A stretch of 56,209 bases of DNA, the filler included, from Jimgerdemannia flammicorona (Eukaryota): NCBI GenBank assembly GCA_003990765.1. It is 2 parts of 2 records of this genome, joined end to end, with 100 filler letters (N's around TTAATTAATTAA, not from the genome) between each part and the next. Parts side by side here need not be neighbours in the genome. Positions count along the whole stretch, not along the records: positions 28,159 to 56,209 come from RBNJ01000585.1; 1 more part is not named here. One strand, written 5' to 3'. The translations under genes were made by a program, and so were the position numbers. Positions within the stretch are counted from its first letter, which is position 1, and the number at the start of each line of letters is the position of its first letter. Below, in pieces: positions 511 through 56,209 of this stretch. The notes below the pieces were generated by a model that saw only the letters and a program-made list of their open reading frames with translations, did not search any database and had not been told where the DNA came from.

Positions 511-948
511 TGTGATAATTAATCTGAATTAGTAATATGAATCAGAAGAATAGACATTTGATTATAGTATCTAAATCCAATTCCCAAATATAGTATAGCC
601 CTACAAATAGCAGTCATATTCTACAGATGTAGAATCTTCACAATTATAGAGATTTCATAGATATAGAAAATCTATACTTATAGAAAATGACTTACAGAAA
701 ACATAATCATAACTTAGCCACCTATAGTTAGCAAACTTTTATAAATATCCCAGTATCTAGAGTGAATAAACCTCAGATCAAAATAAGTTCAAAGTAAAGA
801 AAAGTAAAGAAACTAGCAAGCCTATAGGCAGATACACTTTGAACTCACTCCTCTGTACTCTAAAGACTCTGTGAGAGTCAGAATAAGTCAAGTTTTTAAG
901 ATATAGAAATCTACTATACTTCTGAGGTTAGGTATCTTCTATATTATA
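511..948 (+). repeat. 5' LTR of G1 copy 1
   Basis: Direct repeat of 9456-9861; starts TG; contains TATAAATA at ~739. Confidence 0.9.
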
Positions 949-1066
949 ACTTAGTGTCTATTAGCTGGTGATTCAAGATTAATTTCTTACTTTTAAGCTA
1001 AATAATGAATAACTGCTACCATCTAAACAACCATACAAATTAAACCAAGATATCTAGATATGTAAG

Positions 1067-2400
1067 ATGGATATGAGACCATTAGTATTTTATAGATATA
1101 CTTCAGATAAATCAAATATCATCTTTATTGATGATTTTGAGCAGTATGCTATTGTAAGGACTCTGATAACAATGCAGCAAGTAGCCCTCCTGTCCTTCAG
1201 TCTCTGAGGACCAGCAAGAGTAGTATTTATAGCTACAACCTATGTGAGAAACAATAATAATACAGTACTAATAGTACAGAAGACCTGGCTCTGAGCCACC
1301 TACTATACAAATGAGATCAAACAAGTCTTGAAAGATTAGCTCAATATAACTTACTAAGGAATGAGTGAGGATCTAAACACATTCTACACCAGAATCTAAT
1401 ATTAGATAATTTTTACAGATTATACTACTACCATCCAAGATCAAGTAGCTGAGGCAATCTTTATAAAAAGAGTCTATCCAGAGATAGCTCTAGCTATTTA
1501 CTTATCATCAATAGTTCTGGATCTATCACAAAAAGTCACCTATGCTCAGTGATACTAGATAGTCAGACACCCACAAGACTATATAATGGAAAGAGTCACT
1601 GAAGTTAGAATTAAAACACTTAAGGCAATCAGTGTGATCTCTACTATAGTGATCAATCAAAACATATCTCAGCCAAGAGCTACTGAGCAGTAGAGGAATA
1701 GTGACCATATGAAGAAACTTGCTAAGAAGTTCACTGAAATGATAGCCCACCTAGAAGATGTAGTAAAGAAAATTAGAAGAAGAGACCACTGCCTAGTTCA
1801 GAAGTTTGCTGCTATCTTAGATAAGAAGAAAGATATCTGCTACACTTGTGGAGAAGAAGACTACTATTTATATAAATATATATATGAGTAAAACTAAGTA
1901 TAAGGCCCAGCTAAGTAATGCTATATGAAATAAAGAACAGGCCAATGCCATTACCTTCAAAGAGATTGGAGAATCAGATGAAAAAGAATGAGAAGTCTAC
2001 TCTATCAAGACTATCAAGAAAGATGTCTGTAAATAACCCTATAAGAGACCACCAGAGAGACCCAAAAAGAACCCTGTAAAAAAGTAGATAGAGACTGCTA
2101 CAGAAAGTTAAGGTGAAAAAACAGATTAAAATATAGAGCTAGAATAGACTATTCAAGATATTATCTGAAGAACCACTCTAGCTAGTGAAGGAGAAAAGAA
2201 GAAAAAGCTTTGCAAAACTAAGACCTTCAAGTATGATATCTTCAAAGACCTCAGTCAATAAAAGATCAATGCAACCTTCAGCTAGCTAGTAGAAATACCC
2301 ACATTCAGATAACAAATAAGATATAGACTTGCTGAGACAACTAAGGAACAAGGTTGGAAGATAACTAAGACTAATAATATTCAAGAAGACTCAGAAAAAG
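1067..2400 (+). pseudogene. gag: gag (G1), many stop codons
   Basis: Starts MDMRPLVFY...IFIDDFEQYA and is colinear with gag of copy 2 (50002). Zinc-knuckle remnant CYTCGEEDY at ~1838-1865. Confidence 0.85.
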
Positions 2401-2419
2401 AGAGCAAAGATAATCACAA

Positions 2420-5046
2420 GACCTCTGCCTATATAACCTGTCAGATTGAAGATAGAATCTTCAAAGCTATCATTGATATAGGAGTAGGAGAATATCTTCT
2501 CAACAAGAAAGCAGCATACCACTTAGGTTGGGAAGTTAAAAAAGTAACCAAATTGGTATTTGTCACAGTAGATAGTATAAGAGCCATACTTTTAGGAAAG
2601 ATCCAAGATATTTCCATCAAGTTTGGAGGAGCAACTATTCCAGTAGATGTAATTATGACCAATGCCACCAACTATGATATCTTTATTAGCAATCAGTGGC
2701 TTTATAAAGTCAAGACAATAATCAATCTGAATGCCCAGAAGATATAGATCATCTACTGAGGCCAGAAGATATGAATTCCAATTAATGTCAATAAAGAAGT
2801 GCTGCCTGAGATAGAGGAAGAAAAAAGTGAGCAAGAAGAAGTCTATATAGTGACTACTCAGAAAAAGAAGAAGAAAGTCAGATGGATCAATGAAGAAGAC
2901 TGATGCAGGAAGATTGCAGAAGAATATGTACTACAAAGAGTCTGTCTCTACAGAATCAAGATATACTATAGTGAACCCATTAATGATTACTACTAATATA
3001 GCATCAGCATCAGAAAGATCTACCAGAAAAGAAGACAGAAGGCTCTTAAAAAACAAGCAAGAGAAGAGAAGGAGGAGGAAGAGAATGACAAACCACCAGC
3101 TCTTCTAGAGGATAGTGATGATGAAGAAGAAATCAAGATCAAGATTCAGAAGATCCACTCTGATGTAGTTCTACCAGAATATAAGTCAGAGAATGCAGCC
3201 AGAATAGATATTACTATAATAGAAGAAACCATACTGGAGTCTCAGACAATTACCCTACTTGTAACTAGTCTGAAGATAACTATTCCAAAGGATCATATCA
3301 GAATCCTTAAGACAAGAAGCAGCCTGACTAAGAGTGAAATCACAATTGAAGGAGGAGTTATTAATTCAGATTACATTAAAGAAATACTACTTATTGCTAG
3401 AAACCACAATCCTATAATTCTATTTTCAATCAAGAAGAAGGATCAACTGATATAGATGTTGATCTTCTCAGTTCTTCAGTTAAGGATCATGAAAATCAAG
3501 AAGTTGGAGGAAATAGAAAGAGAAAAGAAAGGATTTGGATCCACAGGAAGAGGAGTATTTGCTAGCACCAAGATTACCAAACTGAATCATAAGAAGGAGA
3601 AAACTATAAATAAGTATAGCTATACTATTGGAAATAAATTCTCACTCAAGAAGAAACTCAAGAAGATACTTTATAAATTTGAGAATATCCTAGCTATGGA
3701 TTTTAAAGATATTAAAGAAAAGACTCCACACTACTATTATGATATAGATACAGAGGACACTGAACCAATCTATCAAAAAGCAAGACCAATACTACCAGCC
3801 TACCACAAATAACTCAGAGAAGAAATCAAGCAGATGAAAGAAGCTAGTATTATTAAAGAAGCCAGTAGCCCCTGAGCCTCACCAGTTGTACTAGTCTCAA
3901 AAAAAGGAAGCAAGCTAGGAGAATTTGCTCCAAGACTCTGTACTGATTACAGGAAGCTCAACTTGGTTACCAAGAAAGATTACCAACTATTACCCCTTAT
4001 CAGTAATATCCTTATAACCTTAGGAGATGAAGTACAGTATTACAGTACCTTGGACTTATACTCACTAAAGCAGTAAGTAAAAAGTCAGCTTTCATTATCT
4101 CAGATAGAACCTATGTCTACCTGTGAATGTCATTCAGAATATACAATACTTCTGTAAGCTTTTAGCAAATAATGAACAAAATCTTCTACTATAATATAGA
4201 AAATAGATGATGGTTTATGTAGATAATATTATTATCTATAGTAAGATAACTGAAGAATATCTGCAGTACATCCAGTAGATGATGAAGAAGCTAAGACACT
4301 ATAGTTTTTACATCAAACCTAAGAAGTGCAAGTTTGCAGAAATCAAGATCATCTATCTTAGCCATGTCATCAATTGAGATAGAATATATATAGACTCTCT
4401 CAAGATTTAAGCAATAGCTATATACCTAAGGCCTACTATAGTTACTGAAGCCCAAGCCTTCATGGGACTTGTCTCATATTACTACTGATTTATTAGAGGA
4501 TTCTTTAATATTACAAGATCAATCTACAAACTCAATAAGAAAGATGTCAAGTTCCAATAGACTAACAGGCAATAAAAAGTATTTGATGAGCTCAAGGTCA
4601 GACTGACTCAGGCACCCATTCTCAAAAAATCTGATTGAACTCAAGAATTCATCCTGCAGACCAATATAAGTACCCAAGAACTAGAAGCAGTTCTGGTTTA
4701 AAAGAAAGACAAAGTAGAGTATATTATTATATATCTAAGTCAAGAAACCAAAGGAGCTGAAAAAGAATATGAATCCTACAAGTTGGAATGTCTTACAGTT
4801 ATCTGGGCTGTAGAGAAGTTCTACTATTACCTCACTAAAATACACTTCATCATTCAGACAGACTACTCAGCCCTTACCTGGCTACTGATCACTGGGCCAC
4901 TCAAAGAAATCTATATCAGATGGATTATGAAGTTGTAAGTATATGATGTAACCATTATACACTACTCAGGAAGAACTAATATCAATATAGATATCCTCTC
5001 ACAGATACTCTGAAGGACTCCCAACCAGAAAATCAATCATGAATAA
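2420..5046 (+). pseudogene. pol: pol: protease, dUTPase, reverse transcriptase, RNase H (G1)
   Basis: PR AIIDIGVG (~2467) and YDIFISNQWL. RT SP*ASPVVLV, RLCTDYRKLN and VYVDN (~4215, decayed YVDD). RH FILQTN..LEAVL, KLECL.VIWAVEKF. Frame ends NHE* at TAA 5044-5046. Confidence 0.9.
3135..3550 (+). pseudogene. dUTPase domain between protease and RT (G1)
   Basis: Trimeric dUTPase motifs: AARIDI (I), RSSL (II), GGVINSDY (III), DQLI.M (IV), REKKGFGSTG (V). Confidence 0.88.
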
Positions 5047-6177
5047 GGAGCTCTACTATAGAATCATCACCTACAAAGATACTTCAATATCTGGAAGAAT
5101 GGACATAAATGATTATTAACAGAACATGAAACAATTTAAGACTGATAGAGAAAGACTAATAGAGAAATGCTGAAGAAAGAAAAACTACTAGTTATATCCA
5201 AATATAAGAAGGAGTAAGTAATGAAATCAGTATACAAACTTAGCTATCTAAGAGAAATAAATATATATAATAAAGCAAAAAGAATAATATATAAAGGTAG
5301 ATATCAGACAATTTGTCAAAATATATGATAAATACCAGAAACAGAAATAAGACCAATAAAACCAAACCCCAGAATCAGTACATATAGAACCAATACCCTT
5401 TGCTCATATAGCAATAGATATAATTGGCCCACTATCTCTAATATTGACTGATAACTGATATATCATTGATATTGTGGATCTCTTTACAAAATATAAGAGG
5501 GTTGCTTTTTAGGGTAACCGTTACATAGTTCTGGAAAGGTTTTCTGAATATTCTGGATATTCTGGAAGACTGTTTTCTTATGGTCAAGATCAATTTCATA
5601 TGGAGTACATCCTCTACGCTTATTGATTTCAAGATTGGGTTGACATCTCAACCAAAGTCCTTTCCTGGACTAGTTCTGGATGTTCAGGATTTTCCATATT
5701 TCAGGAAGTTCAAGAAACTAAGACCAGCTTAGTTGAATTGGCGTATCACTGCAGACAATATCCAATTAGGAAATTTCGTGATAGGGTTAGGAGTGGGACC
5801 TAACAGAGAGCGGATTTACTTAAGAGTGGTTTGTGGGTTATGGAATAGGTTTATTTGCTATTCATGATATTGCTATACTAGGAGTATTTGTGTGAAGGAA
5901 TATTTGTGGGGAAGTATTCAGGAATGTTCTTGTATATTCAAGTCTATTCAAGTCTGAGATTCTGAGGTCTGGGGGAGGGGTATTTATACTAGTGAGGGGC
6001 TATCTGGACTATGCTAAATATGGATGTAGCACTAAGTGCCTTGCTGAGTCGGAATGCAGTCATGTAGTACAAGTGTGATCTGACATGTCAAGAGATCATC
6101 TGACTGCTGAGTCAGTTCACAGTCACGTCATACAAAGCTAATCTAACTATACTATGACTGCTAGGCTATTTATGGGT

Positions 6178-7939
6178 TTAGGCGCTGTCTGGGTAGTCTT
6201 CGATAACATCACCATCAATGGGGATTGTCTAAAGCATCGATAGTCACAACTTGGCAGTACCTGAATTATTTTTAGATTGGTCACACATTTCTCCATTTGG
6301 CTGAGCTCTGAGCATTTTGGCTGAGTTATGTGTCTCCTATTTCTAAGTCAAATATATAAAGATAATATAGAAACATCTCAACACATCTAAAAAATCTTAT
6401 ACATATAATAATCATACTGATAATCCACTACTCAAAATGGCCCAAGAGTTTTGAAGTTGCTTTTTCAACATAAGAAATATCTGCTGAAAAATTCAAACAA
6501 TGGCCACATATATCAAATATATAATCTATCTGGAGTTCTAATAAACCAAAGAATTGTGATAGCTGGACTACTTATAATTGCTATGTATATGAAAAGTATA
6601 CAAAATCAAGTATACGAAAAGAAGGCATCCCAGATGACAAGTGTCGCAAGACACAAATTCAAGAGCCAGACTAGTGTTCTGTGAAAACCAAAGTCACTCA
6701 CTTGGCTACAACATCAATAGTTTGAATCAAATATATTTGAACATACACATAAGTGATATTTAGAACGTTCAGATTCAATTTAGATAACTCTTTATATGGG
6801 CTCAGCCAAATGGAGAAATGTGTGACCAATCTAAAAATAATTTAGGTATCGCCGGGTTGTGACTATCAACACTTTAGACAACCCCCCATCAATGACATCA
6901 TCTCTGATAAAGTAGTCGTCTAGGAAGAGTGGTTCGCAGATTACTTCTCCTTGTTTGCTGAGGTAGTAATACATTGGGACTTCGTCTCCATCCCACAGGA
7001 TAGCATCATCTGTCTCATAGGCTGGATAAGGTGTTGGTAGGTGAAGGATGGGTGTATTGTCTTTGCTTTCATTGGATTCACTGTCTGTGTACCTTCTATA
7101 GATTACAGCACTATGAGTTGCAGGGTTGTAGTAAGCTGGTAGCTGTAGTTCATGTCACTTATACTCAGGTGGTGGAGTTGTTGGTTCGATCTCGAGGGTT
7201 GTCTAGAGGTACAGGTTGTGTTCTCCAGTCTCTTCATTGTAGTTGAAGTAATCGGGGGTGAATGCAGGTTGGTATTCGTGCCAGTGGTCATTATCCCAAT
7301 AAGTCTCATGAACTGTTGTAAGTTCATTGGCAAGATTGGTGGTGTGATCAGGGTTGGCAGAGATCCTTGGCTTGAGGTCATGTTGGCATCGGAGGGATCA
7401 TTGTCTTCTGCTTCATCTTCGTCGAAGTGGATTATATCGTAGATGTCCTTCATGGCATATCCGACTTGAGGCATTTGCAGGATATGGTCATCAGGGTGCG
7501 GGAAGGTTCTGTCTGTGGTCTGGATGTATTCAAGGTACTTGTGGTTGAGTTCTTGTATCATGTCATCGATTTGGCCATAGGACAGGGTAGCAACCATTTC
7601 ACTGATAGTGACTCGGAGGCGGGGAATAAAGGTGTTATACTCATAGAAGAGTTCTCGATGTTTGTGGGCGATGAGCTTTTGGTGTTGAGACATCTGGGTA
7701 ATGTCTGTATCATGGTGGTGTTCGACCATGTCTTCCAGGAGGCAGCCAATCTGGTAGTAGCTTGAGATTTGTCCAATTCGGTGGGCCTCACTAAGCATGT
7801 TCAGGGCATTCCATTGGGCTTCTACGAAGTAGAGGGGTGCCAGGCTATGGATATTCATGAGGGGCAGAGAGGGTGTGGCTTGGTTGACAATGGCATTCCA
7901 AATGTCAGCACGGATACGGTTATAGATCTCAGTGGTCAT
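6178..7939 (-). pseudogene. LTR-encoded ORF-X (unknown function); frameshifted near 7308 and interrupted by a MITE near its 3' end
   Basis: MTTEIYNRIRADIWNAI... from 7939, within track ORF 7103-8029. A 10-bp deletion relative to the copy at 31612 shifts the frame. The ancestral C-terminus ...VIEDYPDSA* ends at 6178. Confidence 0.75.
6221..6885. mobile_element. Non-autonomous DNA transposon (MULE/Mutator-like MITE), 665 bp
   Basis: ~85-bp imperfect TIRs starting GGG(A/G)TTGTCTAAAG; perfect 9-bp TSD CCATCAATG (6212-6220, 6886-6894). Confidence 0.85.
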
Positions 7940-8952
7940 ATTTGTGTATTTAGAAGTTGTGGTTGTTGTTTGTTTTGGTTCTCTGATTCGACGTATCTCG
8001 ACGTGTCTCGGTGCTCGGTATATATGCATTTAGTCCTGATTGGTAAGATTCTGTTTGTGTAAATCTTGTATTCCGTAACTTCATATTGACTCAGCTTTGT
8101 GCACTGTGACTTCAGTTTGACTCAGCTTCGTGATCAAGCAGGTGATTTCCAGGTTTGTTCAGAGGTCGCGTGTGATTTCAGTGGCTTGTTCAGAGGGTGA
8201 TGTGTAATTTCAGTGGCTTAGAGGTTGTGCGCTTACACAAAATGAATAGAGACAGGACTCCTCAAAGAAGCCAATACATAGTCAATTGCTAATTTCTTCT
8301 ATAAAGAAATCATCTGCCAATTAAAGACTTCAATATAAGTAACTACAGATAGAAGTATAGAATTTATAAACTAGTTCTTTGAGGTTCTCTATAAGAAGTA
8401 TAGGATCCAGCACATTTAGACCATAGCTTATTACTCACAAAAGAACAGATAAGCAGAAAGGACTAACAAGACTCTCAAGAATATTATTACCAAGATCTAT
8501 AATAACTATAAAAACTGGGATCACTATCTATCAATAACATTATTCACTCTTCAGAATATCTTCACAAAGTACTCATTTTATCTCTCAAGAGATACTATTT
8601 AGAGAAGAAAATTCTCAAGAAATCCTATCATCTAATGGAGATGCTATTGTAAATATGGAGATATGGAGACTATATCAAATTAGAAAGAAGGCTGAGAATT
8701 ATATAAACAAGATACAGATATTATAATAGAATAATGTAGAGAAGATTTACAAGTCTATAGAGATTATTAAGATAAGAGACAAAGTTCTAATATATTAGAA
8801 TATAGTAGAAGCTTCATGGTTATAAAAACTAAAGCCTAAGTGAGAAGGACCTTATTTTGTACAAGATATAAAAGAAACCACCTTTTGGCTATAAAAAATC
8901 TCAAACACAATCATCCCTACTACCATTCACTGAAACTAACTTAAGAAATATC

Positions 8953-9414
8953 ATGGCTAATCAAAAAAGTATAGCTATAGCTCTCAAGATCACTAATACT
9001 ATATAATAAGCTATAGAAAGACAATGGTATACTACCAAGCTACTCACAATAGAGGAATCTTTCAATAGTATCCAAAGTATAGTATAGATATATCTGTCAT
9101 GAATTTCACACTTCAAGACCTACCAGAATTAGACAGAGCTTCAAGAATACTTCAAGTTAGAATAGCTACTAAACTCACAGTCAGAGATGGCAAAAGAAGA
9201 TTGGATTAGAGAGTGCCAGCTCTCTTATATTCAGATCACTATTACTAAATGAGTATATAAGTTATTTAAGAAAGATGAGCCAGCCTTAGCTTACTTATAG
9301 AAAGTAGTTCTAGGAGACTTTGTATAAGTTAAAAGATATTATTGAGATATTGTGATAATACAGATTATACAGTACAAAGAGATACAGATTGTGGAGGCTT
9401 GGGAGTTTGAGTGA
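8953..9414 (+). pseudogene. ORF3 (accessory ORF between IN and PPT) of G1 copy 1, with stops
   Basis: Same length (462 nt) as, and colinear with, intact ORF3 at 52647-53108 (MANQKS...IVEAWEFE*). Confidence 0.85.
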
Positions 9415-9455
9415 ATAGAGTATTTTAGAGATAAATCATCTATTCAGGAGGAAGT

Positions 9456-9861
9456 TGTGACAGTTGATCTGAATTAATAATATAAATCAAAAGAATAGAT
9501 ATTTGATCATAGTACTCTCAAATATAGTATAGCCCTACAAATAGCAGTCATATTCTATAAATGTAGAATCTTCACAATTATAGAGATTTTACAGATATAG
9601 AGAATCTATACTTATAGAAAATGACTTACAGAAAATATAGTCATAACTTAGCCACCTTATAGCTAGTAAACTTGTATAAATATCTCAATATCTAAAGTGA
9701 ATAAACCTCAGATCAAAATAAGTTCAAAGCAAAGAGAAGCAAAGGAACTAGTAAGCCTGTAGATAGATATACTTTGAACTTACTTCTCTATATTCTGAAG
9801 TCAAGTTTTTAAGATATAGAAATCTACTATACTTCTGAAGTTAGATATCTCCTATATTATA
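9456..9861 (+). repeat. 3' LTR of G1 copy 1
   Basis: Follows the PPT; direct repeat of 511-948 with small deletions. Confidence 0.9.
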
Positions 9862-23633: not shown

Positions 23634-24831
23634 TATTTTATTTTATTTTATTTCATTTTTTAATAGACTTATATCCCATGAAATTTTATTAGAAGGGAAC
23701 CTAGACTATATAGGCCAAAACCCTCCCCCACCACCCACCAAGTACTGCTCCCTCATTAACCTAGACTAGCTATTGTTCAGCAGCTTGACCATACTAGGCA
23801 CAGTAGGGCCTATATTGGCTCACACCTCATTCTATACACCATGCTCTCTCTACCACCAGGAGAAACCCAACTATATGCCAATGACTGAAAGCGCATGTCC
23901 GAGAACTTAATGTATGTATAAGGCCATGCCCAAGCCAAATAAAATAGCTCCTGCCACCCCAAAGAGAATGACAGACAAAGAAAAACCCTCATCAAAGCAC
24001 AATATAGTGGGTAGGGCCTGATTCTCCCAGTCGAGATGAGTAAAGGACTTATATATGAGGCAGGAGGAAGCCCCCAATACCCCACTACTCAAGCCTGCAA
24101 GCCTTGATCACATTGCTATATCAGCTTCCAATTCCAGTTGAGTGCAGCCAAGACACCTGAAATAGGTAGCCTTGGGCCCCCTGACTCCCCCTGATGACTG
24201 GGGCCCAACCCTGCTAACCACCAAAAGAAGCCGAGAGTGACACCTACCATCTAACCATACTGCACCAATCAAAAGACCCCACTGAAGCAGCACCTGCCCC
24301 AGCCCCGATGACTGTCCCCAGTCTGGCACCCTACTGGTTCACTGTAATCACTCATCCTCTTATCTGTGATGGCCATCTCCCCTCCCATCCTGACAATACC
24401 TGAAAAGCAGTCACCTATGCTAGAACCATGCTCACTGGGAAGCTCGCCAAAGCCAGAGAGCCCTACTACAGGTACCAAAGACCTACAGGTAACCTACACT
24501 GAGCACTTGATGCCCAAGGTCAGCCGACTCCCTATGTAGCCCAAGACATACCGAGACAATACCTTGTTGGCAATGGCAAAAGGAAGAAGGTACTGCACTA
24601 AAATGGATATATCCCAGATATAGCCAAAGGTACCAGAATCTGTGAAAAAGTAGAGAAAGCACTGATCTGACACTGATAAAGGGGTAACTCATCACCATTG
24701 CCCTCCTCCCACTATGCTCCTGCAGGTACAGCAAACCAACCTGAGGTATAGGGGGTAATATTAGGGGAAAGGGGACTTAGAAGGTCATCTATCAAACCTT
24801 GTGACCAGTAAGGTAGCAGAGAAAGGAGCTA
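23634..24831 (-). mobile_element. ~1.18-kb poly(A)-tailed non-autonomous retroposon, copy 1
   Basis: Matches the three other copies; A-rich tail at the left end; probable ~14-bp TSD TTTATAAAA(C/T)TATT on both sides. Confidence 0.8.
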
Positions 24832-25431
24832 TTTATAAAATTATTTATATATATAAAATTATTTATCTATTTATATAGATTAAATAAATTCTAATTTTGT
24901 CTCTTAGTTTATTTAAACTAAACTAGACTATATTATTTAAAATTTTAAGCTTTAATATAATAAAAACTTTTTATAATAGAGCTTTAATATAAAAGAACTT
25001 TAATATAAAAAGAGCTTTAGAGTAAATAGCTTTTATATAAATAAAAGCTTTAATATAGAGAGATTTTAACAAAAAAGAGAAAAAAACTTTAATATAAGAC
25101 TTACATAAAAAAGTATTAATATAAAGCTTCAGTATAAAAAGACATTAACATTAGAAAGTATCAGTATAAAGTATAAGAAGACATCAGTATAAGCTTATAA
25201 TTATAAGCAACTTTAACACTTTGTCATCTTATCTACTCATAATTGTCTACTCATTAAATTTGTATAGGCCAAATAAATTCCTTTATTTGACGTTGGATTC
25301 ATTTGCATTCAGGCTTCAATTTAAACATAGAATCGGCCTCTGATTTTAAGCGGACATTGCTGAGTAAGCTTGTCATGTGATTTGTGTTGTGACATTTACC
25401 GCCTTTCTGTCCCACAGTCTTATGTGAGAAT

Positions 25432-28058: not shown

Positions 28059-28158
28059 NNNNNNNNNNNNNNNNNNNNNNNNNNNNNNNNNNNNNNNNNN
28101 NNTTAATTAATTAANNNNNNNNNNNNNNNNNNNNNNNNNNNNNNNNNNNNNNNNNNNN
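28059..28158. other. Assembly gap with artificial six-frame-stop linker
   Basis: 44 N + TTAATTAATTAA + 44 N; continuity across it is not guaranteed. Confidence 0.95.
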
Positions 28159-31323: not shown

Positions 31324-33392
31324 TATAAGTGCACAACCTCCAAGCCACCGAAATTATACATCACCCTCTGAACAAGCCACTGAAATCACACACGAGCTCC
31401 GAACAAATCTGGAAATCACCTGCTTGATCACGAAGCTGAGTCAAACTGAAGTCACAGTGTACAAAGCTGAGTCAATATGAAGTCACAGAACACAAGATCT
31501 ACACAAACAGAATCTTACCAATCAGGACCAAATGCATATATACCAAGTACTGAGATGCATCGAATCAGAGAACCAAAACAAACAACAACCACAACTTCCC
31601 AACACACAAACATGACCACTGAAATCTACAACCGCATCCGCGCTGACATTTGGAATGCCATTGTCAACCGAGCCACACCCCCTCTGCCTCTCATGAATAT
31701 CCATAGCCTGGCACCCCTCTACTTTGTGGAAGCCCGATGGAATGCTCTGAACATGCTTAGCAAGGCCCACCAAATTGGACAAATCTCAAGCTACTACTAG
31801 ATTGGCCGCCTCCTAGAAGACATGGTCAAATACCACCATGATACAGATATTACTCAGATGTCTCAACACCAGAAGCTCATCGCCTGCAAACATCGAGAAC
31901 TCTTCTATGAGTACAACACCTTTATTCCCCGCCTTCGAGTTACTACCAGCGAAATGGTTACTACCCTGTCCTACGGCCAAATTGATGACATGATACAAGA
32001 ACTCAACCACAAGTACCTCGAATATGTCCAGACTACAGACAAAACCTTCCCGCACCCTGATGACCATATCCTACAAATGCCTCAAGTTGGATATGCCATG
32101 AAGGACATCTACGATATAATCCACTTCAATGAAGACGAAGCAGAAGACAATGACCCCTCTGACGCCAACATGACCTCTAGCCAAGGATCCCTGCCAACTC
32201 TGATCACTCTGCCAACCTTGCTGATGAACTTACAACAGTTCATAACTGTATACGAGACTTATTGGGACAATGACCACTGGCATGAATACCAACCCACATT
32301 CACCCCTGATTACTTCAATTACAATGAAGAGACCGGAGAACACAACCTGTACCTCCAGACAACCCTAGAGATCGAACCAACAACCTCACCACCTGAGTAC
32401 GAGCAACATGAACCACAGCCACCAGCTTACTACAACCCCGTGACTCATAGTGCTGTAACCTATTGAAGGTATGCAGACAGCAAATCCAATGAAAGCGAAG
32501 ACAATACATCCATCCTTCACCCACCAACACCTTATCCAGCCTACAAGACAGACGATGCTATTCTATGGGACAGAGATGAAGTCCCAATATACATATTACT
32601 ACCTCAGCCAACAAGGAGAAGTAATCCGTGAACTACTCTTCCTAGATGACTACTTTATCAGAGATGATGCAATCGATGATGATGTCATCGAAGACTACCC
32701 AGATAGTGCCTAAGACCTATAAATAGTCTAGCAGTCATAGTATAGATAGATTAGCCTTGTACGACATGACTGTGAACTGACTCAGCAGTCAGACGATCTC
32801 TTGATATATCAGATCACACTTGTACTACGTGACTGCATTCCGACTCAGCAAGGCACTTAGTGCTATATCCATATCTAGCATAGTCTAGATAGCCCCTCAC
32901 TAGTATAAATACCCCCTCCCCCAGACCTCAGAATCTCAGACTTGAACAATCTGAACACAACTCCTGAGCACTTCTCCACAATATCCCTTCACACAAGTAC
33001 TCCTAGTATAGCAATATTATGAATAGCAAATAAACCTATTCTATAACCCACAAACTACTCTTAAGTAAATCTGCTCCCTGTTAGGTCCCACTCCTAACCC
33101 CATCACGAAATTTCCTAATTGGGTATTGTCTGCAGCGATACGCTAATTCAACTAAGCTGGTCTTAGTTTCTTGAACTTCCTGAAATACGGAAAATCCTGA
33201 ACATCCAGAACTAGTCTGGAAAAGGACTTTGGTTGAGACGCCAACCCAATCTTGAAATCAATAAGCATAGAGGACATACTCCATATGAAATTGATCTTGA
33301 TCCTAAGAAAATGGTCTTCCAGAATATCCAGAACTTCTAGAAAACTCTTCCAGAACTATGTAATGGTCACCCTAAAAAGTAACCCTCTTACA
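31324..33392 (+). mobile_element. Solo LTR of G2, type A (2069 bp), inserted in the 5' LTR of the G2 element
   Basis: TATAAG...CTTACA termini; TSD AAAGG (31319-31323, 33393-33397). Confidence 0.93.
31612..32713 (+). pseudogene. LTR-encoded ORF-X, ~365 aa reconstructed (two point stops, one small frameshift)
   Basis: MTTEIYNRIRADIWNAI...YY*IGRLLE...; TAG at 31798 (CAG in the 7103-8029 copy) and TGA at 32464; acidic tail ending DDDVIEDYPDSA*. Confidence 0.78.
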
Positions 33393-45643: not shown

Positions 45644-46831
45644 CAGCTTCCCTTTCTCCGCTACCTTACCAGTCACAATGGTATGGTAGGCAACCTTCTG
45701 AGTCTACTTTCCACAATTATTACCCCCTCTACCTCAGGTTGGTTTGCTGTACCTGTTGCAGGACAGTGGGAGGGAGACAATAGTGATAAGTTGCCTCTTT
45801 ATCAGTGTCAGATTAGTGTCTTCTCTACTTTTTTGCAGTTTCTGGTGCCTTCAGCTATATCTGGAGTGCATCTGTTTTGGTGTTGTATCTTCTTCCTTTT
45901 GCTGTTACCAACAAGATACTATCTTGGTATATCTCAGGCTATGTAGGAAGTTGGCTGACCTTGGGTATCAAGTACTCAGTATAGGTTATCTGCAGGTCCT
46001 TAGTACCTATGGTGGGGCCCTCTGGCTTTGGTGAGCTTCCCAGTGAGCATAGTTCTGACATAAGTGACTGCTTTTTGGGTATTGTTGGGATGGGAGTGAA
46101 GATGGCTATCACAGATAGGAGGAAGGGCAATAATGGTGAACCAGTAGAATACTAGACTGGGGGTAGTCATTGGGGCTGAGGCAGGTGTTGCTTTGGTGGG
46201 GCCTTTTGATTGGTATGGTATGATTTGATAGTAAGTATCACTCTCAGCTTCTTTTGGTAATTTGGTGGATTGGACCTTGGTTGTCAGGGGGGGTCAGGGG
46301 GCCCAAGGCTAAGGCATCTTGACTGTACTCAACTGGAATCAGAAGCTGACATGGCAACATAATCAAGGCCTATAGACTTGAGTAGTGGGGTATTAGGAGT
46401 CTCCTCCCATCTCATGTATAAGTCCTTTACTTACCTCAACTGAGAGAACTAGGTCCTACCCACCATGTTGTACTTTGATTTTACCTATCATTCTCTTTGG
46501 GGTAGTAGGGACTATTCTATTTAGCTCAGACATAGTCTTATACATATGTTGGAGTCTTGGGTGTACACTTTTGATTATTGGCATATGGCTGGGATTCCCC
46601 TGGTAGTAGAGAGAGCATGGTGCACAGAATGAGGTACAGGCCAACATAGGCCCTGCTGCACCTGGCATGATTGAGCTGCTAGACAATAGCTAGCCTAGGT
46701 TAATGGGGGAGCAGTGCTTGATGGGTGGTAGGGGAGGGTTTTGGCCTATATAGTCTAGGTTCCCTTTCAATAAAATCTGTAAGACATTGAGTCCATTAAA
46801 AAAAAAAAAAAAAAAAAAAACAAAAAAAAAA
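45644..46831 (+). mobile_element. ~1.18-kb poly(A) retroposon, copy 4, inserted in the Copia RNase H
   Basis: 16-bp TSD AGAG(G/A)ATGTTACTATT (45628-45643, 46832-46847) and poly(A) tail. Confidence 0.92.
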
Positions 46832-49800
46832 AGAGAATGTTACTATTGAAGATTACTTGTATATTTGGTATAAAATAGCTATATTTTTACTGATTTAGAA
46901 GACATATCTGATCACAGAGTACTGATCATTAAGAATCTCTAGTCCAATCTATATTATATATACTAGTTAATCTTATAGTACTCCTACTTGATTAATTATT
47001 ACTTAAATGTAATATATAGTATACTATATCTTTGATATATCTGAAAATATACTTAATTGCTATCTAATGGATATTATTATAGTAGAATGAGTATTGCACT
47101 CCTTTGTTGACTATATATAATATATTGGACCTTATCCTAAGTATAAGATATATAAGAGATCTCATAGCTTACTAATAGAGAATATTATTATCTTTAGGCA
47201 TAGTATCACTAGACTTCTTTAATCTTATAGATATCTCTATAGATATTCCAACTGGCTTGTATTTACTTATACTAAATTATTTAAGTATAGTCTAAATATA
47301 TATAGCTTGTGATAGATATATAGTATATTTATATCTATTATATATAATTAATATTCTAAGAAGATAGAATATATTACTCATATCTATCATCTTGAATTCT
47401 TAGTTTAATATCACCTTTATATTATTGATCTTGCTTACTGTTCTGATCAAAATAATATCATTTATCCAAATTCTTAGATATACTATTTCTGAGGATATAT
47501 GTTAGGTATATATATATATATAGATCAGCCTTATAATATTTAAATCTATTATCTAAGAGATATTTATTAATTTCTCAGTTCCACAGTCTTAATACTTATT
47601 TGATGTCATAGAAACCTTTATATAATTTGTATATAAGTTCCTTTTACTCATTATTATATAGTTTATATTCTTATAGTTAATATTTATATAGCTCTATATC
47701 TATATTACTGTTAAAAAAGGCTGTCTTAATATCTATTTGATAGATTTCATAATTATATTTAACTTTAATCATAAGAAGTATTCTAAGTAAAGTAAGTTTG
47801 AATATAGGAAAAAGGTCTCATTATAGTCTATACTGTATTTTTATGAATATCTCTTTATTACAAATTGAGCTTTATAATACTCTATTATTCTATCAGCTTT
47901 ATACTTAATCTTATAAACTCATTTCAATTCTATAGCTTGTCTATCTATTAAGAGAGAGACTAAATTCTAGGTATTATCCTTAATAAGTAAATTGTATTCC
48001 TTGTCTATAGTCTTTTTTCACTCCTTTTTATTATTTGAGTATATAGCTTTATCATAATATACTAGTTCATCAGTTATTACAATATAAACATACTTATAAG
48101 TACTAGTATAGTTTATGTAATATTTGTGGTTATAATGAGATATATATCTTAAGTAGGTTCCAATACTTCTAAATCTGCTTTAACTTTATTTTATAGCCTA
48201 GATCTATATTTTTTCTTACCTTTTAGAAAGATATTTTTCTCCTCTTTATCATTTGTAATATCTATAATTCTTGGTTTAAGAAGTTTTGTAGGCATAGATA
48301 TAGATTGTACTATCAGAATCTTAACTATTAATATAGAGAGCATTCTACTTACTATTAGTATAAATGATGCTAGCTGTATCATTAGGTTAATAGAGATAGA
48401 AATTTCCATATAAATTTTCTACTTAGTCTACTTGAACTGAATATTATAAGAGATAACTATATAGTGTTTCTGTAGGTTCTATAATCTATATACTATTCTA
48501 TCATATTTAAGAAATATATACTTATCTGTCTTAGACTTGAATTTGTCTTTATTGCTATCTTTATCTAGAATATAAGTCTCACTTCTAAATATCTATAAGT
48601 GTGAGATATCAGACTTGGATCTATTCTACAATTCTTTAGAAGTAAGATCAGCATTATTTCCAGATTATTAATTATTGTTATTTCTGGATTACTAATTACC
48701 AGATCTGCTGGATCTATCAGAATCCTTGCTTAGAGCTTGAGAAACACAATGATTTCAGATATATACTACTATATTTATACTTCAGCCCAAAAAAAGTATA
48801 GTAAGCTGGCTGTATTTATTGTCATTTAAACTATCTCTACTATTGTTTAGTAAAAGTATTCTACAACACTATTCTATTGAGGTGTATAGAGGAGTATTGA
48901 ATACTATGCTTCTTCAAAAAGTCTCTGAAGACTTTATTGATATATTTCTTACTATTATCTGAGCATAGAGTCTATATCTTATATCTTATTTTATTCTTTA
49001 CAATTATCTTAAATTTTCAGAATTTTTCAAATACCTTATTCTTTATTATAAGGAAGTATATATAGACTTTGTAAATATAATTATCAATAAAAGTGATAAA
49101 ATATCTCTTCTCAGAGTATATTAAAGTTTATATAGAGCTACAGATATCTATATATATCAGATTGAGAATTCTGACTACTTGCTTTATCTATTTCTAAAAA
49201 GGTTATCAGAAAGTCTTATTTGCTATATATTTATTACAAAGACTGAAATCTGGTGATATATAGTTCAGTAATCTATATATAGATTTACTCCTTATTATTT
49301 ATTTCAGGCTTTTTTTACTAATATATCCCAAGCATTCATACCATATATATTAGAGATCCTCTTTAGTTGTAGTTGCAGAATATACAGATAATATACTACT
49401 CAGTATACTATCAATTGTATATAGGTTTCTCTTTTTTGATATATATTATGGCAGTATAGCCGAATTAGGAAGAAGAAAATAGGGAATAGACACTTGATCA
49501 CACCCATTCCCAAAGTAGTATAGTTTTATAGTTAGCAGTCACTGATTTCGACATTGTCTAAATTTCTAGACATTGTCCAAATTGAATACCCTGATTTAGT
49601 ATAGTATTTCGACATTGTCTAAATTTCTAAACATTGTCTAAATGACTCATAACTTAGCTGCATAACTCAGTAGCCATCTCATAGCTAGCAAACTTATATA
49701 AATAACTCAGTATCTTCAAGTGAATAAACCTCAGATTGAAAGTGTTAGTAAAAGAACAAGTATACTGATAAAGGAACTTTCGAGATTATCTCTTAAAACA

Positions 49801-50001
49801 CATTTGGCCTCAAGGAACTACTGACTCTGGGAGTCAAGAAGACAAGAATTCAAGATAAAGAAATCTGACATACTTGCCCCCCTTAGTATCTGCTATGTTA
49901 CAACTTGGTGCCCATTGGCTGGTGATTCAAGATGAATCCCTCACTTTCAAGCTGAACAATGAACAACTGCAATCAGAACGCATACAATACAATCAGACAG
50001 A

Positions 50002-51295
50002 ATGGATATGACACCCCCCATATTCTATGGATATACGTCCGACGAATCAATCATCATCTTCATTGATGATTTCGAGCAGTATACCACTGTAAGGACCTTA
50101 AGTGCAGCACAATAAGTAGCCCTACTCCCTGTAAGTCTCCGAGGCCCAGCAAGAACTGTGTTTACTGCAGCCAATGTACAAGCAGCTGATGATCCAGCAA
50201 GAATCATAGCTTTCAAGACCTGGCTCTGAGTAACCTACTATACAGATGAAATCAAACAGGCACTCAAAGATCAACTGAATACTATCTGCCAAGGAATGTC
50301 TGAAGACCCAAACACATTCTATACAAGAATCCGACATCAAATAGTCCTTGCTGACTACCCCGATGCAGTTCAAGACCAAGTGGCCAAGAATACCTTTATG
50401 AAAGGCATTCACCAAGAAATTACTTTAGCCATTCAATCTACCCCAACACCACTGGACCTGGGACAGAAGATTACCTATGCCCAAAGATACTAGACTGCCA
50501 GACACCCTCAAGACCATACAATGGAAAGAATAACTGGAGTAAAAATCGAACAAGCACCAAGAGTCACCAATACAATCCCAGCTACCATAGTCAACTGGAA
50601 TACACAACTGCAACCACAAGACCAGAGAAGGGTCGACCCAATGGAGGAACTGGCCAAACAGTTTGCAGAAATGACTGCACACCTCAGCGATGTAGTCAAA
50701 GAGTTCAAGAAGAAGCCAGTATAGAAGTTTGCCACTACAAATGCAAGACAATCAATAACATGCTATAACTGTGGAGAAGAAGGCCACTATATCTCTGAAT
50801 GTATGACAGAAACCAAGCAAAAGGCCAATCCAAGCAATGCAACCAGAAACCATGAACAAGCAAACACTATCACCTTTGAGGAGATTGGAGAATCCGAGGA
50901 AGAAAGAGAGGAATGGGAAGCTTACTCTACCATCTCAAGTAAGAAGGATGTCTGATCCAGTCTCTACAAAAGACCTCCAGGCAGACCTCCTAAGAAGGCC
51001 CAGACACAGACAAAACAATCAGAAACAGTCATCAAAAAAGGAATTCAGCAGAGTGAAGCTGACCAAGATATGGAGCTAGAACAAAATACTGAGCTGGAGC
51101 AAGCAGTAGAAGATATTATTCGAAATACTACTCCATCAAGTAAAGGGAAGAAGGAGCAGAAACTGTGCAAGAGCAAGACCTTCAAGTATGACATCTTCAA
51201 GGACCTCAAGGACCAAAAGGTCAATGCAACCTTTGGCCAGCTGGCTAAAATTCCAACATTTAGACAACAAATGAGGACAGGTATCTCAGACATTG
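50002..51295 (+). pseudogene. gag: gag (G1 copy 2)
   Basis: MDMTPPIFYG...; QGMSEDPNTFYTRI; knuckle CYNCGEEGHYISEC (~50761); single frame with point stops. Confidence 0.88.
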
Positions 51296-51464
51296 GCACT
51301 CACCTGGTTGCTCACTACTAGTGAGCCCAAAGGAATCTATGCCCGATGGATCATGAAGCTGCAAGCATATGATGCCATGATCACCCACCACTCTGGAAGA
51401 ACCAATGCCAATGCTGACACCCTCTTATGGACATCCTGAAGGACTCCACCCCTATGAAATCACT

Positions 51465-52657
51465 ATGAATAGGGAGCCATATTATGGAATCATCAGCTAC
51501 CTGGGGCAGCGAAAGATGTCCCCGCATCTGGAAGAATGGACAAAAACAATTATTAATCAGACATGGAAAAAATTTGAAACTGATGGAGAAATACTCAAGA
51601 AAGGATAACAATTAGTCATCCCCGAGCACCAGAAGAATCAAGTGATGAAAAAAATACATGAACAAGATCACGTAGGAGAGACAAACACATTTGACAAAGC
51701 GAGAAGAACCTTGTGGTGGCCCAGAATGGAAGAAGATATCAGACAATTTGTCAGGACCTGTGACAAATGCCAGAAATAGAAACAAGACTGATGAGATCAA
51801 GCCCCTGGATTAGCAGACATTGAACTGATACCATTTGCCCACATTACAATGGATGTAATTGGCCCCCTACCCCTGACATTGACTGGCAACCAATATGTCA
51901 TTGTAATAGTAGACCTGTTTACAAAATGGGTAGAGGCTGGGCTGCTCAAGGAAGCCAATACACAGTCAATTGCCGATTTCTTGCACAGAGAAATCATCTG
52001 CTGATTCAAGACCCCAAAGCAAGTTACCACAGACAGAGGAACAGAATTTGTCAACCAGTTTCATGAGATTCTTTACAAGAAGTACAAGATCCAATACATC
52101 AAGACCACCGCGTATCACCCACAAGGAAACAGACAAGCAGAGAGAACCAACAAGACCCTCAAGAACACCATTGCAAGATCTATGATGAATACGGAAACTG
52201 GGACCACTATCTTCCAATAGCATTATCCACTCTGCGGGACATATGATCACAAAGCACCCATTTTACACCACAAGAAATGCTATTCAGCAAAGAAAGTTCT
52301 GGTGGAAGTTTGTCAGCAAGTAATAATGCAATTTGGAAGCATGTGGACACAGAGATATGGAGATTGCACCAGATTAGGAAAAAGGCAGAGGATTACATAA
52401 TCAAGACACAGGAACTACAATGGAACAATGCGGAAAAAACCCACAAGCCCCTGGAGATTATCAAGATAGGAGATGAAGTTCTAGTATATTGGAATATGGT
52501 AGAAGCTTTGTGGTTACAAAAATTGGAGCCCAAGTGGGAAGGACCTTATCTGGTACAAGATATAAAAGGGACTACTTTCTGGCTATGAAAGCCCTCAGGC
52601 ACAATAATTCCCACCACCATTCATCAAAACTGACTCAAGAAGTACTATGGCCAATAA
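51465..52657 (+). pseudogene. integrase ORF (G1 copy 2)
   Basis: MNREPYYGIISYL start; HHCC (HEQDH...CDKC); core MDVIGPLP, VDLFTKWVEA, TDRGTEF, AERTNKTLK; PKWEGPYL. Confidence 0.9.
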
Positions 52658-53108
52658 CCGAAGCACCGCGATGGCACTCAAGATCACTAGTGCTGCCCAA
52701 AGAGCCATCAAAAGACAATGGCACACCACTGAGCCTCCGACCATAGAGGCATACTATGAGGATATTCAGAGCATTGTGCAGACTCATCTCTCTCAGATCT
52801 CGCACTTTAGAGCCTATCAATATTGGGCAGAATTCCAAGAATACTTCAAGCTTGGACAGGTGCTCAATCAGGATCCAGCAAAGACCAAAGAGGACTGGAT
52901 TGCTAAGTGTCAACTCTCCCACTCACAGATCACTATTGCCAAAAGGATCCACAAGTTATTTCGAGAAGATGAACCAGCAATAGACCACCTGAGAGGAGTA
53001 ACCCCCACTGACTTCAAGAAAGTAAGAAGATATCATTGGGAAACAGTCATGCAGCAAATTACACAATATAAGACCATACAGATGGTTGAAGCCTGGGAGT
53101 TTGAATAG
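52647..53108 (+). CDS. ORF3, intact 153-aa accessory protein of unknown function in the env position
   Basis: Uninterrupted ATG-to-TAG ORF between the IN stop and the PPT; length and sequence conserved in G1 copy 1. Confidence 0.82.
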   Translation: MANNRSTAMALKITSAAQRAIKRQWHTTEPPTIEAYYEDIQSIVQTHLSQISHFRAYQYWAEFQEYFKLGQVLNQDPAKTKEDWIAKCQLSHSQITIAKRIHKLFREDEPAIDHLRGVTPTDFKKVRRYHWETVMQQITQYKTIQMVEAWEFE

Positions 53109-55239
53109 ATGCCTCAGAGATGAGACCATCTATTCAGGAGGAAGTTGTGATGGTATAGCCGAATTAGGAAGAAGGAAATAGGGAATAGACACTTGATCAC
53201 ACCCATTCCCAAAGTAGTATAGTTTTATAGTTAGCAGTCGCCAATTTCAACATTGTCTAAATTTCTAGACATTGTCCAAATCGAACACCCTGATTTAGTA
53301 TAGCATTTTGACATTGTCTAAATGACTCATAACTTAGCTGTGTAACTCAGTAGCCATCTCATAGCTAGCAAACTTATATAAATAACCCAGTATCTTCAAG
53401 TGAATAAACCTCAGATCAAAAGTATTAGTAAAAGAACAAGTATACTGATAAAGAAACTTTCAGGATTACCTCTTAAAACACATTTGGCCTTAAGGAACTA
53501 CTGACTCTGGGAGTCAAGAAGACAAGAATTTAAGATAAAGAAATCCAATATACTTGCCCCCCTTAGCATCTGCTACATTACAATATATTAACTCCTTATT
53601 ATACTTTAGATTGATTACCATTACACCATTTAGATATATATTTACTTCTCTATCTCCTTGAGCTATTATCCAGTCTATCAAGAAGAGATTCTTACCTATA
53701 TCTAGTATATATAATATATCTATAAAGATATCTGAAGATTTATCAATATTTCTATATAGATATATACTAACATTACTCTTGTCTTAAACATAGATGATAT
53801 TATTATTGTCTAGTTTAATAGGTATAGGGTGTTCAAACTTCTTGTATATTATAACATACCTGGCTCAATAGAGATAAATTACAAGATTGGGGGTTGATGT
53901 AGTTTGGCTTGAGCTATTAGTTACTTTGTCAAAAAGTAACAAAATGTTCTAAGATTTCTGGTATCCTTGTTAGTGTTTAGTAGTATAATAGTTAATCTGA
54001 ATACAATAGTTGATTTGTGTATCAATTTTCTTATTGAGATGAGTTCTTGAGTATAGTGATAATTTGTATATAGTATGGGCATTCTCCAGTATGCAATTTG
54101 CTACATGATGATCTTTTGTATAGTATAACAATCTCTGTATAGCACAGCAGGTTCCTTATGTAGGATGGTCTGGCAATTTGGTGGTTTTCCTTATGCAATT
54201 TTGGTGGAAAACACAATTTGGTGTAGATTCTTCTGAATTGGTATACTTCTTGAATAATAAATTGAATGATGTGAATTTTTCCTAAATCAGCTCTTCTGGA
54301 AATATCAGATAACTTGATAACTTAGATAACTTAGTAATACAGATTCTTTCTGAATTAGGCTCACTGAAAATAGATAAATAACTTAAATAGTATAGATAAC
54401 TTAGATAACTTAGATGTTGTAGATTCTTCCTAAATTGATGGACTTCTGGGAAATAACTTAGATGGTACAGGTTGTGGATTCTTAGCAAGTTACATCAAAG
54501 ACTAGCTTTGTTTGTACAGGGTTATATCATAGACTGGCTCTACTGTGAAGTTATATCAGAAGACTGACTTATGGCAAGTTTTTTTAAGGTGAGCTCTCTA
54601 GAAATGACAGACTTCTTGAGCAAAGTTATATTATGACTGGCTTTATTTATATAGAGTTATATCAATAGACTGACTCTACTGTGAAGTTGTATCAACAGAT
54701 AGGCTTTAGTGACAAGATGGCAGACTTTTTCTTAAAAATGGCAGCTTATTTCTTAAGTGGCAGATTACTCAAATAGTGGTGAAGTTCTTCCTTGAACTTG
54801 GCAGATTTCTTGAATTCTTCAGGCTTATCTGGCAAATAAACCAAAAATGTAACCAACTCTTCTTTATATCAAAAAGTGGACCAGAGTGGGGAAAAGGAGA
54901 CTAATGCTCAATCTTTAGAGACTTCTTTGGTTTGTACTTCAACTTTTTAGACTGAGGTTTATTTACTCTTGTCTCTGAGGTATTTTATACATTGTAGTTG
55001 CTATCTGGTTACTATCTGGATATTTATAGATATACTATTTCTGATAATATTTGAGTATATCTACAGGATATAAATGTGTCCACAAGATATGAGTATGTCT
55101 ACAGAACATAAGTATGTCTACCAGATACAGGTGTGTCCTCAGGATATAGATAAACAATCTTGATTTGGTATTCTAACTAATTATAAATATAGCAGATATG
55201 AGTAACTATGCTATATTGGGAGTTTATATCATCTGGCTA

Positions 55240-56209
55240 TATTATACTATTTGCTCATTACATCAGTCTCTACTGAAGAATAGTCTGCCTCAGACTGTTC
55301 TTCAGTCATCATCTCAATAAGCATAAACAGCTTCTGTATCTATATCTATTCTATCATTATTATTATCTATACTATGATCACTCCATTCTAAGGGCTCCTC
55401 TTCTTCCTCAGAGAATAGGGTCTCAACTTAGTAGATGATACTGAGGTAGATGGGTAGAGTCATTCTTTAGAGATCATTCAGAAAGCCTGCTTCTTTTGCT
55501 GTCAGCCTGGTCACATTGCAACTAAATGTCCCAAGAAAACTGCCAAACCAAAGAGGATCCTGGTCCTGTCCAAAGACACTTAAGGTCAATCAGTTGAACA
55601 AGAAGTCATACTCAATTTCATATGAGTCAACTCCAAGACCCAGATCCCTCAAGCACAGTCAGAAGGAGCCATTTGTTTGGATCTTCAAGCAATACAACAA
55701 GTCACTATTCCTGCACATGAAAGAAGGCTCATTCCAACTGACCTTTCAGTCGAAATCTCCAAGGAACATTATGCAAGAATTACACCAAGATCTGGCCTCA
55801 GTTTCAAGCACTCATTGGATATTGGCGCTGGAGTCATTGACCCTGACTTCTAAGGTGAAATGCAAGTCCTGCTAGTCAACCATAAGAACTAACCATATAC
55901 TATCAATGAAGGAGACAGAATTGCACAGCTTATTCTGGAGCAAGCCACCCTACCAGTCATCAAAGAAGTCACCAAGCTGTCTTCAACCAAGCGAGATCAG
56001 AAAGGCTTAGGCAGCACTGATAAAGTTGTAAGCATAGCTGAGAACCGAGTCAATTCAATGCTCATTTTTAAAGATCTAGTCAAGGGACAAGAACTAGATG
56101 TTCTCATAGACAGTGGAGCTATTGGGAACTTCATCAATAAGAACCTCATCAACAAGCTCAAGATTCTTACCAAACTAGCCAGCAAGAATAGTGGAGTTGT
56201 TTTTTTTTT
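55240..56209 (+). pseudogene. Ty3/Gypsy fragment: gag end - dUTPase - protease start (runs off the window)
   Basis: Knuckle CFFCCQPGHIATKCP (~55488). dUTPase ~55585-56020 (PRSGLS, GAGVIDPDF*GE, GDRIAQL, RDQKGLGST). PR VLIDSGAIGNFIN (~56100). Confidence 0.88.

Follow-up and report, generated by a model that had tools for sequence, protein, structure and literature searches.

The window analyzed here, 56,209 nucleotides (nt) of the Jimgerdemannia flammicorona genome (GenBank assembly GCA_003990765.1; positions 28,159 to 56,209 come from RBNJ01000585.1), carries two copies of a long terminal repeat (LTR) retrotransposon of the Ty3/gypsy type. An N gap at 28059-28158 joins two contigs, and the copies lie on different ones, copy 1 at 511-9861 and copy 2 at 49447-53582 (Table 1). 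In the lineage to which they belong, the integrase (IN) is a separate gene, not the tail of the usual polyprotein, and its start codon sits on the stop codon of the preceding gene. The elements almost certainly consist of an LTR, open reading frame 1 (ORF1; Gag, protease [PR], dUTPase, reverse transcriptase [RT], and RNase H [RH] in one frame), ORF2 (IN with its own conserved Met), ORF3, and a second LTR. Whole elements of the window family measure about 6.7 kb.

The original prediction placed four ATG/stop overlaps of 8 to 11 nt, all +1, at the RH-IN and IN-ORF3 junctions of both copies, and all four were located there. The overlaps are 8, 8, 11, and 8 nt for the ATGs at 51465, 5039, 52647, and 8953, with the matching stops at 51470 (TAG), 5044 (TAA), 52655 (TAA), and 8958 (TAA). 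Both copies are dead. Copy 1 is full length and stop-ridden, and its IN is broken by an insertion. In copy 2, about 2.5 kb are missing at 51295/51296, which removes PR, dUTPase, RT, and most of RH, and one nucleotide has been deleted from IN near 52173. Since both are decayed and the RH frame of each meets stops before the junction (51437 and 51455 in copy 2 and 5011 in copy 1), of the type left by C-to-T decay, the window by itself cannot prove that the ORFs are separate.

For the family in its own genome, an ORF3 search yielded 2,937 first-look candidates; the 150 of them that were scored all had 88 to 100% identity. Twenty stretches around ORF3 matches were sampled; 19 had the whole internal region, and 18 of these had both LTRs, the 19th (L031) being without a 5' LTR in its stretch. 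Gag through RH was in one frame in 7 of the 19 full-length copies, and the remaining copies shift phase at copy-specific places. IN lay +1 relative to the RH end in 18/19, the exception being a private 10-nt deletion (L002/L031) that sets RH and IN in frame. After exclusion of 20 spurious motif matches lacking an RH motif, the RH-IN junction was canonical (+1, ATG, TAA or TAG) in 44 of 48 sampled copies; the IN-ORF3 junction was canonical in 50 of 54. In an exact-pattern genome scan, 627 junctions kept the RH stop inside the IN start and 3 had a sense codon instead, so the RH-IN split is ancestral in the family. The most frequent decay stop within IN, by comparison, was present in 9/15 copies. 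The 8-nt RH-IN overlap is common to three subfamilies that are 72 to 82% identical in IN DNA, and it includes two copies with a stop-free IN.

Beyond this genome, the IN of one copy, with X at stops, was searched against proteins of 218 to 695 amino acids (aa) and gave 177 matches. The best 120 of the 177 were examined and were 32 to 81% identical to the query. Among the matches listed, 94 covered the N terminus; Met stood in the same column in 93 of these, and 90 began exactly there. At the DNA level, 79 metagenome and 10 viral loci were examined. In relatives with an open ORF1 of 1,281 to 1,746 aa (zf-CCHC, PR, dUTPase, RT, and RH), ORF1 ends just past the RH motif, right at the IN ATG, and IN begins in another frame. 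Two of these relatives have terminal repeats, one pair being 99% identical.

The clade that holds the window family (the core clade) had a support of 1.0 in the IN tree (FastTree, 83 rows) and 99 by the SH-like approximate likelihood ratio test in the RT-RH tree (quick IQ-TREE, 34 rows). All 12 core metagenome loci (11 distinct) with both an RH end and an IN start were split, and neither tree placed a fused RH-IN member in the core clade. The ordinary fused elements were 18 distant loci; the 10 viral contigs were distant as well, none falling inside the core clade. A search among longer proteins gave 197 matches, and the best 120 of these were all at most 38% identical to the stand-alone IN. 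The trees do not establish a single origin of all split groups, with an IN-tree support of 0.3 and a weak interleaving of the fused loci L120, L131, and L135 in the quick RT-RH tree.

Thus, the three-ORF layout is ancestral and extends across the lineage; the IN Met is conserved, and the junction geometry varies. It could be objected that the split reflects decay or assembly error of dead copies, as both copies in the window are dead and carry C-to-T mutations (CpG observed/expected ratio of about 0.2) and one copy has a deletion that puts RH and IN in frame. Against this stand the open-ORF relatives, which are also split and include the one with nearly identical repeats, the 12/12 split core loci, the distance of the longer proteins, and the 627 junctions versus 3, and this explanation is refuted, with a negligible probability. 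The original prediction, which called for comparison of both junctions over family copies and relatives, was therefore sound in treating IN and ORF3 as separate, ancestral ORFs and the pattern as more than random decay. It had staked itself on the youngest copies, and a continuous RH-IN frame was found in none of the young or intact relatives within the clade.

In most respects the elements are of the gypsy class. LTR pairs with TG...CA ends, 92 to 96% identical with almost all differences being transitions, were present in 18 of the 19 full-length loci. Among 16 scored copies, a 4-bp target-site duplication was found in 12 and a 5-bp one in none. L053, L055, L057, and own-genome copies have their domains in the order PR-RT-RH-IN and match the RVT_1 and RT_RNaseH profiles. 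IN itself is of the gypsy type, with the H2C2 finger, DDE core, and GPY/F module all present and the H, C, D, D, E, and GP alignment columns invariant; no chromodomain was found at the C terminus of two full INs or in the annotations of the best 120 of the 177 homologues. The primer-binding-site (PBS)-like sequence begins with TGG 3 nt past the LTR; the genome has 1,116 occurrences of a 13-mer from it, among which the primer tRNA gene was not picked out. Because IN is not encoded within the Pol polyprotein, the elements are filed as a gypsy-like variant and not as a canonical member. The RT-RH and IN trees comprise only unnamed relatives, and their deep branches are weak. In the flanks of L032-L049, the 4-bp target sites have TA at their center (ATAT, ATAC, ATAG, GTAG, GTAT, and CTAT), which suggests sequence-biased integration.

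The RH-IN junctions of the 12 core loci vary widely. The offsets were +4 (ATGA) in four loci, +8 in two, +10 and +11 in one each, +1 in three (TAATG twice and TGATG once), and -2 in one, in both the +1 and +2 phases. The RH tail ranged from 12 to 28 aa (10 loci tested), yet the ORF1 stop tracked the IN ATG and never lay more than 2 nt before it, a probable decay stop in L063 aside. What is conserved is the Met with a nearby stop, not the phase or a shift site, which is the pattern that termination-reinitiation would leave.

Outside the core clade, other arrangements occur as well. In the outer group, TAA is followed by an in-frame ATG 9 to 15 nt later in 6/6 loci; of two further outer loci, L075 has ATGA and L081 has a 28-nt gap. 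A spaced group of five loci (L072, L074, L077, L078, and L080; four distinct) has RH-IN gaps of 92 to 371 nt, and no ORF3 was detected after IN in any of the five. In 4/4 distinct loci of this group, TATAAATA stands 43 to 45 nt before the IN ATG with no ATG between, and the spacer of L074 and L077 contains a duplicated 41- to 58-nt element. No such TATA motif was present in the 14 core and 8 other outer junctions. These features suggest a putative internal promoter for IN in the spaced group. In eight further loci (L082, L083, L084, L086, L087, L089, L093, and L099), IN starts at or near the homologous position, with its own Met in most, and no upstream RH motif was found; several of them have a common 18-nt motif at varying distances upstream of the IN start. 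These eight could be IN-only elements or elements with long spacers.

In most core loci, an ORF3 homologue lies 3' of IN. Its ATG keeps a fixed place where the IN core ends, with the IN stop 0 to 407 nt farther on. Where this end reads Tyr-His, His is encoded by CAT with a G directly after it in 12/12 loci, whereas at other positions CAT makes up 44% of the His codons in eight of these INs, so the ORF3 ATG looks selected. Exceptions are L064, which has no ORF3 ATG, and L056, which is differently arranged. The IN-ORF3 overlap is 11 nt in the window family, and the 8-nt overlap of copy 1 recurs in 16 of 17 loci (copy 1 and its closest copies). In L053, which is related to the copy 1 group, IN reads on to a 44-nt overlap. 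Separately, a subfamily of the same genome (L143, L146, L147, L152, and L159) has a longer IN tail and a different-looking ORF in place of ORF3; in most copies this ORF starts 4 nt past the IN stop, a gap with which local coupling of IN to the downstream ORF is possible.

The product of ORF3 is predicted to be a small helical protein (mean predicted local distance difference test score, 86 for the whole and 93 for the core). A profile search returned 64 proteins, none with a Pfam domain, and among 19 members no Pfam match fell below an E value of 0.03. An envelope glycoprotein of the errantivirus type is not what was found, the 153-aa model being compact and all-helical. In the ESM Atlas, the matches were unnamed clusters with low shared-feature counts; Foldseek gave nothing at an E value of ≤0.001 in PDB or BFVD, and VIA-align gave nothing above a Z score of 4.8. 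The best structural neighbors were ParB-type helix-turn-helix (HTH) proteins, namely, VirB (3vwb; Z score of 4.4, root mean square deviation of 3.6, 74 aligned residues) and SopB, ParB, KorB, and Spo0J (Z scores of 3.2 to 4.4), all within the background range, and this modeled likeness is a lead only. A SET protein, the sole match of a PDB profile search (E value of 0.0045), was rejected.

We consider it probable, at about 0.6, that IN in the core clade is made by termination-reinitiation. Ribosomes would end ORF1 on the genomic RNA and restart at an AUG lying no more than a few bases from the stop, giving the integrase. This reading is favored over frameshifting because the overlap takes so many forms, from TAATG, TGATG, and ATGA to +8, +10, +11, and -2, in two phases. 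Stop and start lie within about 20 nt of each other at the RH-IN junction (-2 to +11, the earlier stop of L063 aside), and in shuffled controls a stop fell in this window in only 6 to 41% of cases per locus (10 loci). UAAUG and AUGA overlaps are viral reinitiation motifs with the codons within 20 nt, working at 3 to 20% efficiency in caliciviruses (PMC10275272), and UAAUG coupling in Cryphonectria hypovirus 1 (CHV1) reached 2.5 to 4.4% in fungal and insect cells (PMC2699510). Reinitiation would supply integrase in amounts that are a small fraction of those of Gag-RT and would replace the usual gag-pol frameshift as dose control. As Gag and RT are encoded together in ORF1, detaching IN would set its dose, and IN would have to enter particles as a free protein by a packaging route of its own. 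ORF3 would be initiated at its own AUG, probably not by stop-coupling across the lineage; a separate or spliced RNA is more likely.

Several observations weigh against reinitiation. The tight RH-IN overlaps could be compaction, and the shuffled controls are not independent across related loci. L063 has an earlier RH-frame stop 89 nt upstream, probably from decay. The starts of the homologues are choices of gene callers under a length limit and were therefore checked in DNA. No complement to the 18S helix-26 loop, as in TURBS (termination upstream ribosome-binding site) elements, was found upstream of the IN ATG against the own-genome 18S (L160), a eukaryotic one; this test is firm only for the three own-genome subfamilies. 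The core junctions share no upstream k-mer beyond the ADALS codons, and over 14 junctions no consistent RNA folding signal was found. The wider lineage does not require stop-start coupling, as the spaced group puts the IN ATG 92 to 371 nt past the stop behind a TATA box. The original prediction had assumed one mechanism for both junctions. For RH-IN, termination-reinitiation is the best reading; IN-ORF3 is not stop-coupled across the lineage, since in many members the overlap is too long for known stop-coupled reinitiation, TURBS reinitiation tolerating roughly 20 to 30 nt between stop and start (PMC10275272). In addition, the IN stop of copy 1 may be a decayed Gln codon, because copy 1 and its closest copies are heavily C-to-T mutated.

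The principal competitor, a doubtful one by comparison, is that IN is made from its own subgenomic RNA, either spliced or from a TATA-less internal promoter in RH, and that the overlap is mere genome compaction. The spaced group, with TATAAATA at -43 to -45, its duplicated spacer element, and no intervening ATG, speaks for such an RNA, as do the purine at -3 in 10/14 core junctions and the typical origin of LTR-element ORF3s from spliced messages (PMC5408684). The 14 core junctions, however, contain no TATA box or branch point plus acceptor within 200 nt, and in 12 of them other ATGs lie within 100 nt upstream of the IN ATG. Compaction alone also leaves unexplained why the stop stays ≤2 nt before the ATG (L063 aside) while the tail length varies.

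Programmed frameshifting or readthrough, giving a low-frequency RH-IN fusion in which the Met is merely a conserved residue, is unlikely. The four window junctions are all +1, and in most window-family copies the IN frame is open for about 29 to 47 codons upstream of the ATG, like frameshift overlaps. In several core relatives, however, this overlap is just 6 to 13 codons, and the phase is +1 or +2 in the core and 0 in the outer group. The core junctions share no slippery motif; no Ty1, Ty3, or antizyme-type site was found in them, and XXXYYYZ-type heptamers occur in only 4/14, at different places. With neither a conserved phase nor a shift site, and with a nearly invariant IN Met, the +1 frameshifting offered as an option in the original prediction is not supported. 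An internal ribosome entry site inside the RH coding region, starting IN independently of ORF1 termination, is somewhat less likely still. It would likewise give a fixed AUG on a genome-length RNA, and L063 folds at a z of about -3.5, but the other 13 junctions have no conserved structure, and the proximity of stop and start is not predicted.

Canonical Ty3/gypsy elements (Metaviridae), including the dUTPase-bearing Tuber Tmt1, basidiomycete elements, and the rotifer Juno, Vesta, and TelKA, have the same LTRs, PBS-like site, polypurine tract, CCHC Gag, PR-RT-RH-IN order, dUTPase between PR and RT, and H2C2-DDE-GPY integrase. In the present lineage, by contrast, IN stands outside Pol with its own Met, gag and pol form one ORF, and, unlike in env-bearing gypsy elements, ORF3 matches no Pfam family, env included. 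The position of dUTPase between PR and RT is already known (PMC5408684, PMC6431247). Pol is described as a polyprotein that includes IN (PMC3248453, PMC5408684), Kuafuorterviruses retain IN in Pol (PMC11673190), and a survey of int positions gives five states, none described as a separate ORF after RH (PMC2774666). The "separate ORF" passages of PMC10508981 and PMC5911963 concern domains other than IN. Plant Tat elements do carry a Pol-type domain in its own ORF within a gypsy lineage, an additional RNase H; this second RH, which lies upstream of gag or pol, is accessory and is not the essential integrase (PMC10508981). In the literature searched, no description of a separate IN ORF in LTR elements was found; Repbase, GyDB, Dfam, most subscription journals, the Tmt1 paper, and supplements lay outside its scope and may record one.

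Viral termination-reinitiation systems (the CHV1 UAAUG, the victorivirus HvV190S, and calicivirus and influenza B TURBS) resemble the present lineage in their long upstream ORF, a stop within about 20 nt of an out-of-frame AUG, and the same short overlap motifs. They differ in that no TURBS-like rRNA complement or conserved upstream structure was found in this lineage, that its geometry shifts freely within one clade, and that its mechanism is a putative one. The retrotransposon SART1 also couples ORF1 to ORF2 by a stop-start UAAUG (PMC10275272); it differs in being a non-LTR element, in placing the coupling before the RT ORF and not inside Pol, and in requiring a downstream structure, which is not consistently seen at the present junctions (z below -2 in 3/14).

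Foamy viruses make Pol apart from Gag, the whole Pol coming from a spliced RNA. Both they and the present lineage need another packaging route for the separate enzyme, and only IN is detached here. In LTR retroelements, integrase is normally cut from Pol and enters the particle via the polyprotein, so a successful lineage that makes IN separately, with hundreds of copies in this genome and dozens of metagenome families, must solve dose and packaging otherwise. Tentatively, integrase would have been detached from Pol in this deep lineage, which would since have come to make it in at least two ways, by a TURBS-less stop-start coupling of freely changing geometry in one clade and from an internal TATA promoter in another, with ORF3 as an HTH partner that packages or targets the free integrase. 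If so, we know of no earlier LTR retroelement group with a Pol-independent integrase, and the lineage would provide a large natural library of eukaryotic reinitiation signals. The junctions offer many natural, testable cases of eukaryotic reinitiation following a very long ORF, for which the documented examples are mainly a few viruses and SART1. Annotation pipelines probably score such elements as frameshifted and dead, and the lineage may have been overlooked.

Table 1. Coordinates of the features of the two element copies in the window
Feature	Position	Strand	Remarks
Copy 2 5' LTR	49447..49902	+	TG end decayed to TA; LTR pair 93.5% identical, 27/28 differences are transitions
Copy 2 target duplication ATAT, 4 bp	49443-49446 and 53583-53586		
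Copy 2 PBS-like sequence	49906..49922	+	starts TGG; 3 nt after LTR
Copy 2 gag part of ORF1, decayed	50002..51295	+	CCHC knuckle; stops at 2.5-kb internal deletion
Copy 2 RH C-terminal remnant	51296..51472	+	ancestral ORF1 stop at 51470-51472
Copy 2 RH-IN junction	51465..51472	+	8-nt start/stop overlap, +1
Copy 2 ORF2 (stand-alone integrase), decayed	51465..52657	+	H2C2 zinc finger, DDE core, GPY motif; PF17921 E 3.8e-18; rve E 5.6e-5 on fragment
Copy 2 IN-ORF3 junction	52647..52657	+	11-nt overlap, +1
Copy 2 ORF3, open	52647..53108	+	153 aa; conserved, predicted all-helical; no Pfam family
Copy 2 polypurine tract	53133..53145	+	
Copy 2 3' LTR	53146..53582	+	
Copy 1 5' LTR	511..948	+	LTR pair 89.9% identical
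Copy 1 ORF1 (gag-PR-dUTPase-RT-RH), heavily decayed	1067..5046	+	dUTPase E 7e-11
Copy 1 RH-IN junction	5039..5046	+	8-nt overlap
Copy 1 integrase	5039..8960	+	insertion at 5492-8237
Copy 1 ORF3, decayed	8953..9414	+	8-nt overlap with IN
Copy 1 polypurine tract	9443-9455	+	
Copy 1 3' LTR	9456..9861	+	

The insertion inside the copy 1 IN, probably a large solo LTR, is 2.75 kb long, has T(G)...CA ends, and is flanked by a target-site duplication of 5 bp (CAAAA). It contains a 308-aa minus-strand ORF (8029-7103) with weak similarity to ORF3 (E value of 0.0011, probability of 21%; weaker in a second comparison), and further copies of the element lie at 12829-14849 and 31326-33390. The CpG observed/expected ratio was 0 to 0.2 in the repeats (46000-49400 and 1-9900) versus 0.86 in the gene-rich 17000-27000, consistent with methylation-driven decay or decay resembling repeat-induced point mutation. 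Between the repeats lie host genes for tRNA-Pro(CGG) (17837-17909), a methyltransferase (19702-20286), and a Tyr/Ser-Thr kinase-like protein (25432-26745). At 55400-56209, there is a fragment of another retroelement with a putative CCHC knuckle, dUTPase, and protease, in which dUTPase, judged by eye, apparently precedes PR.
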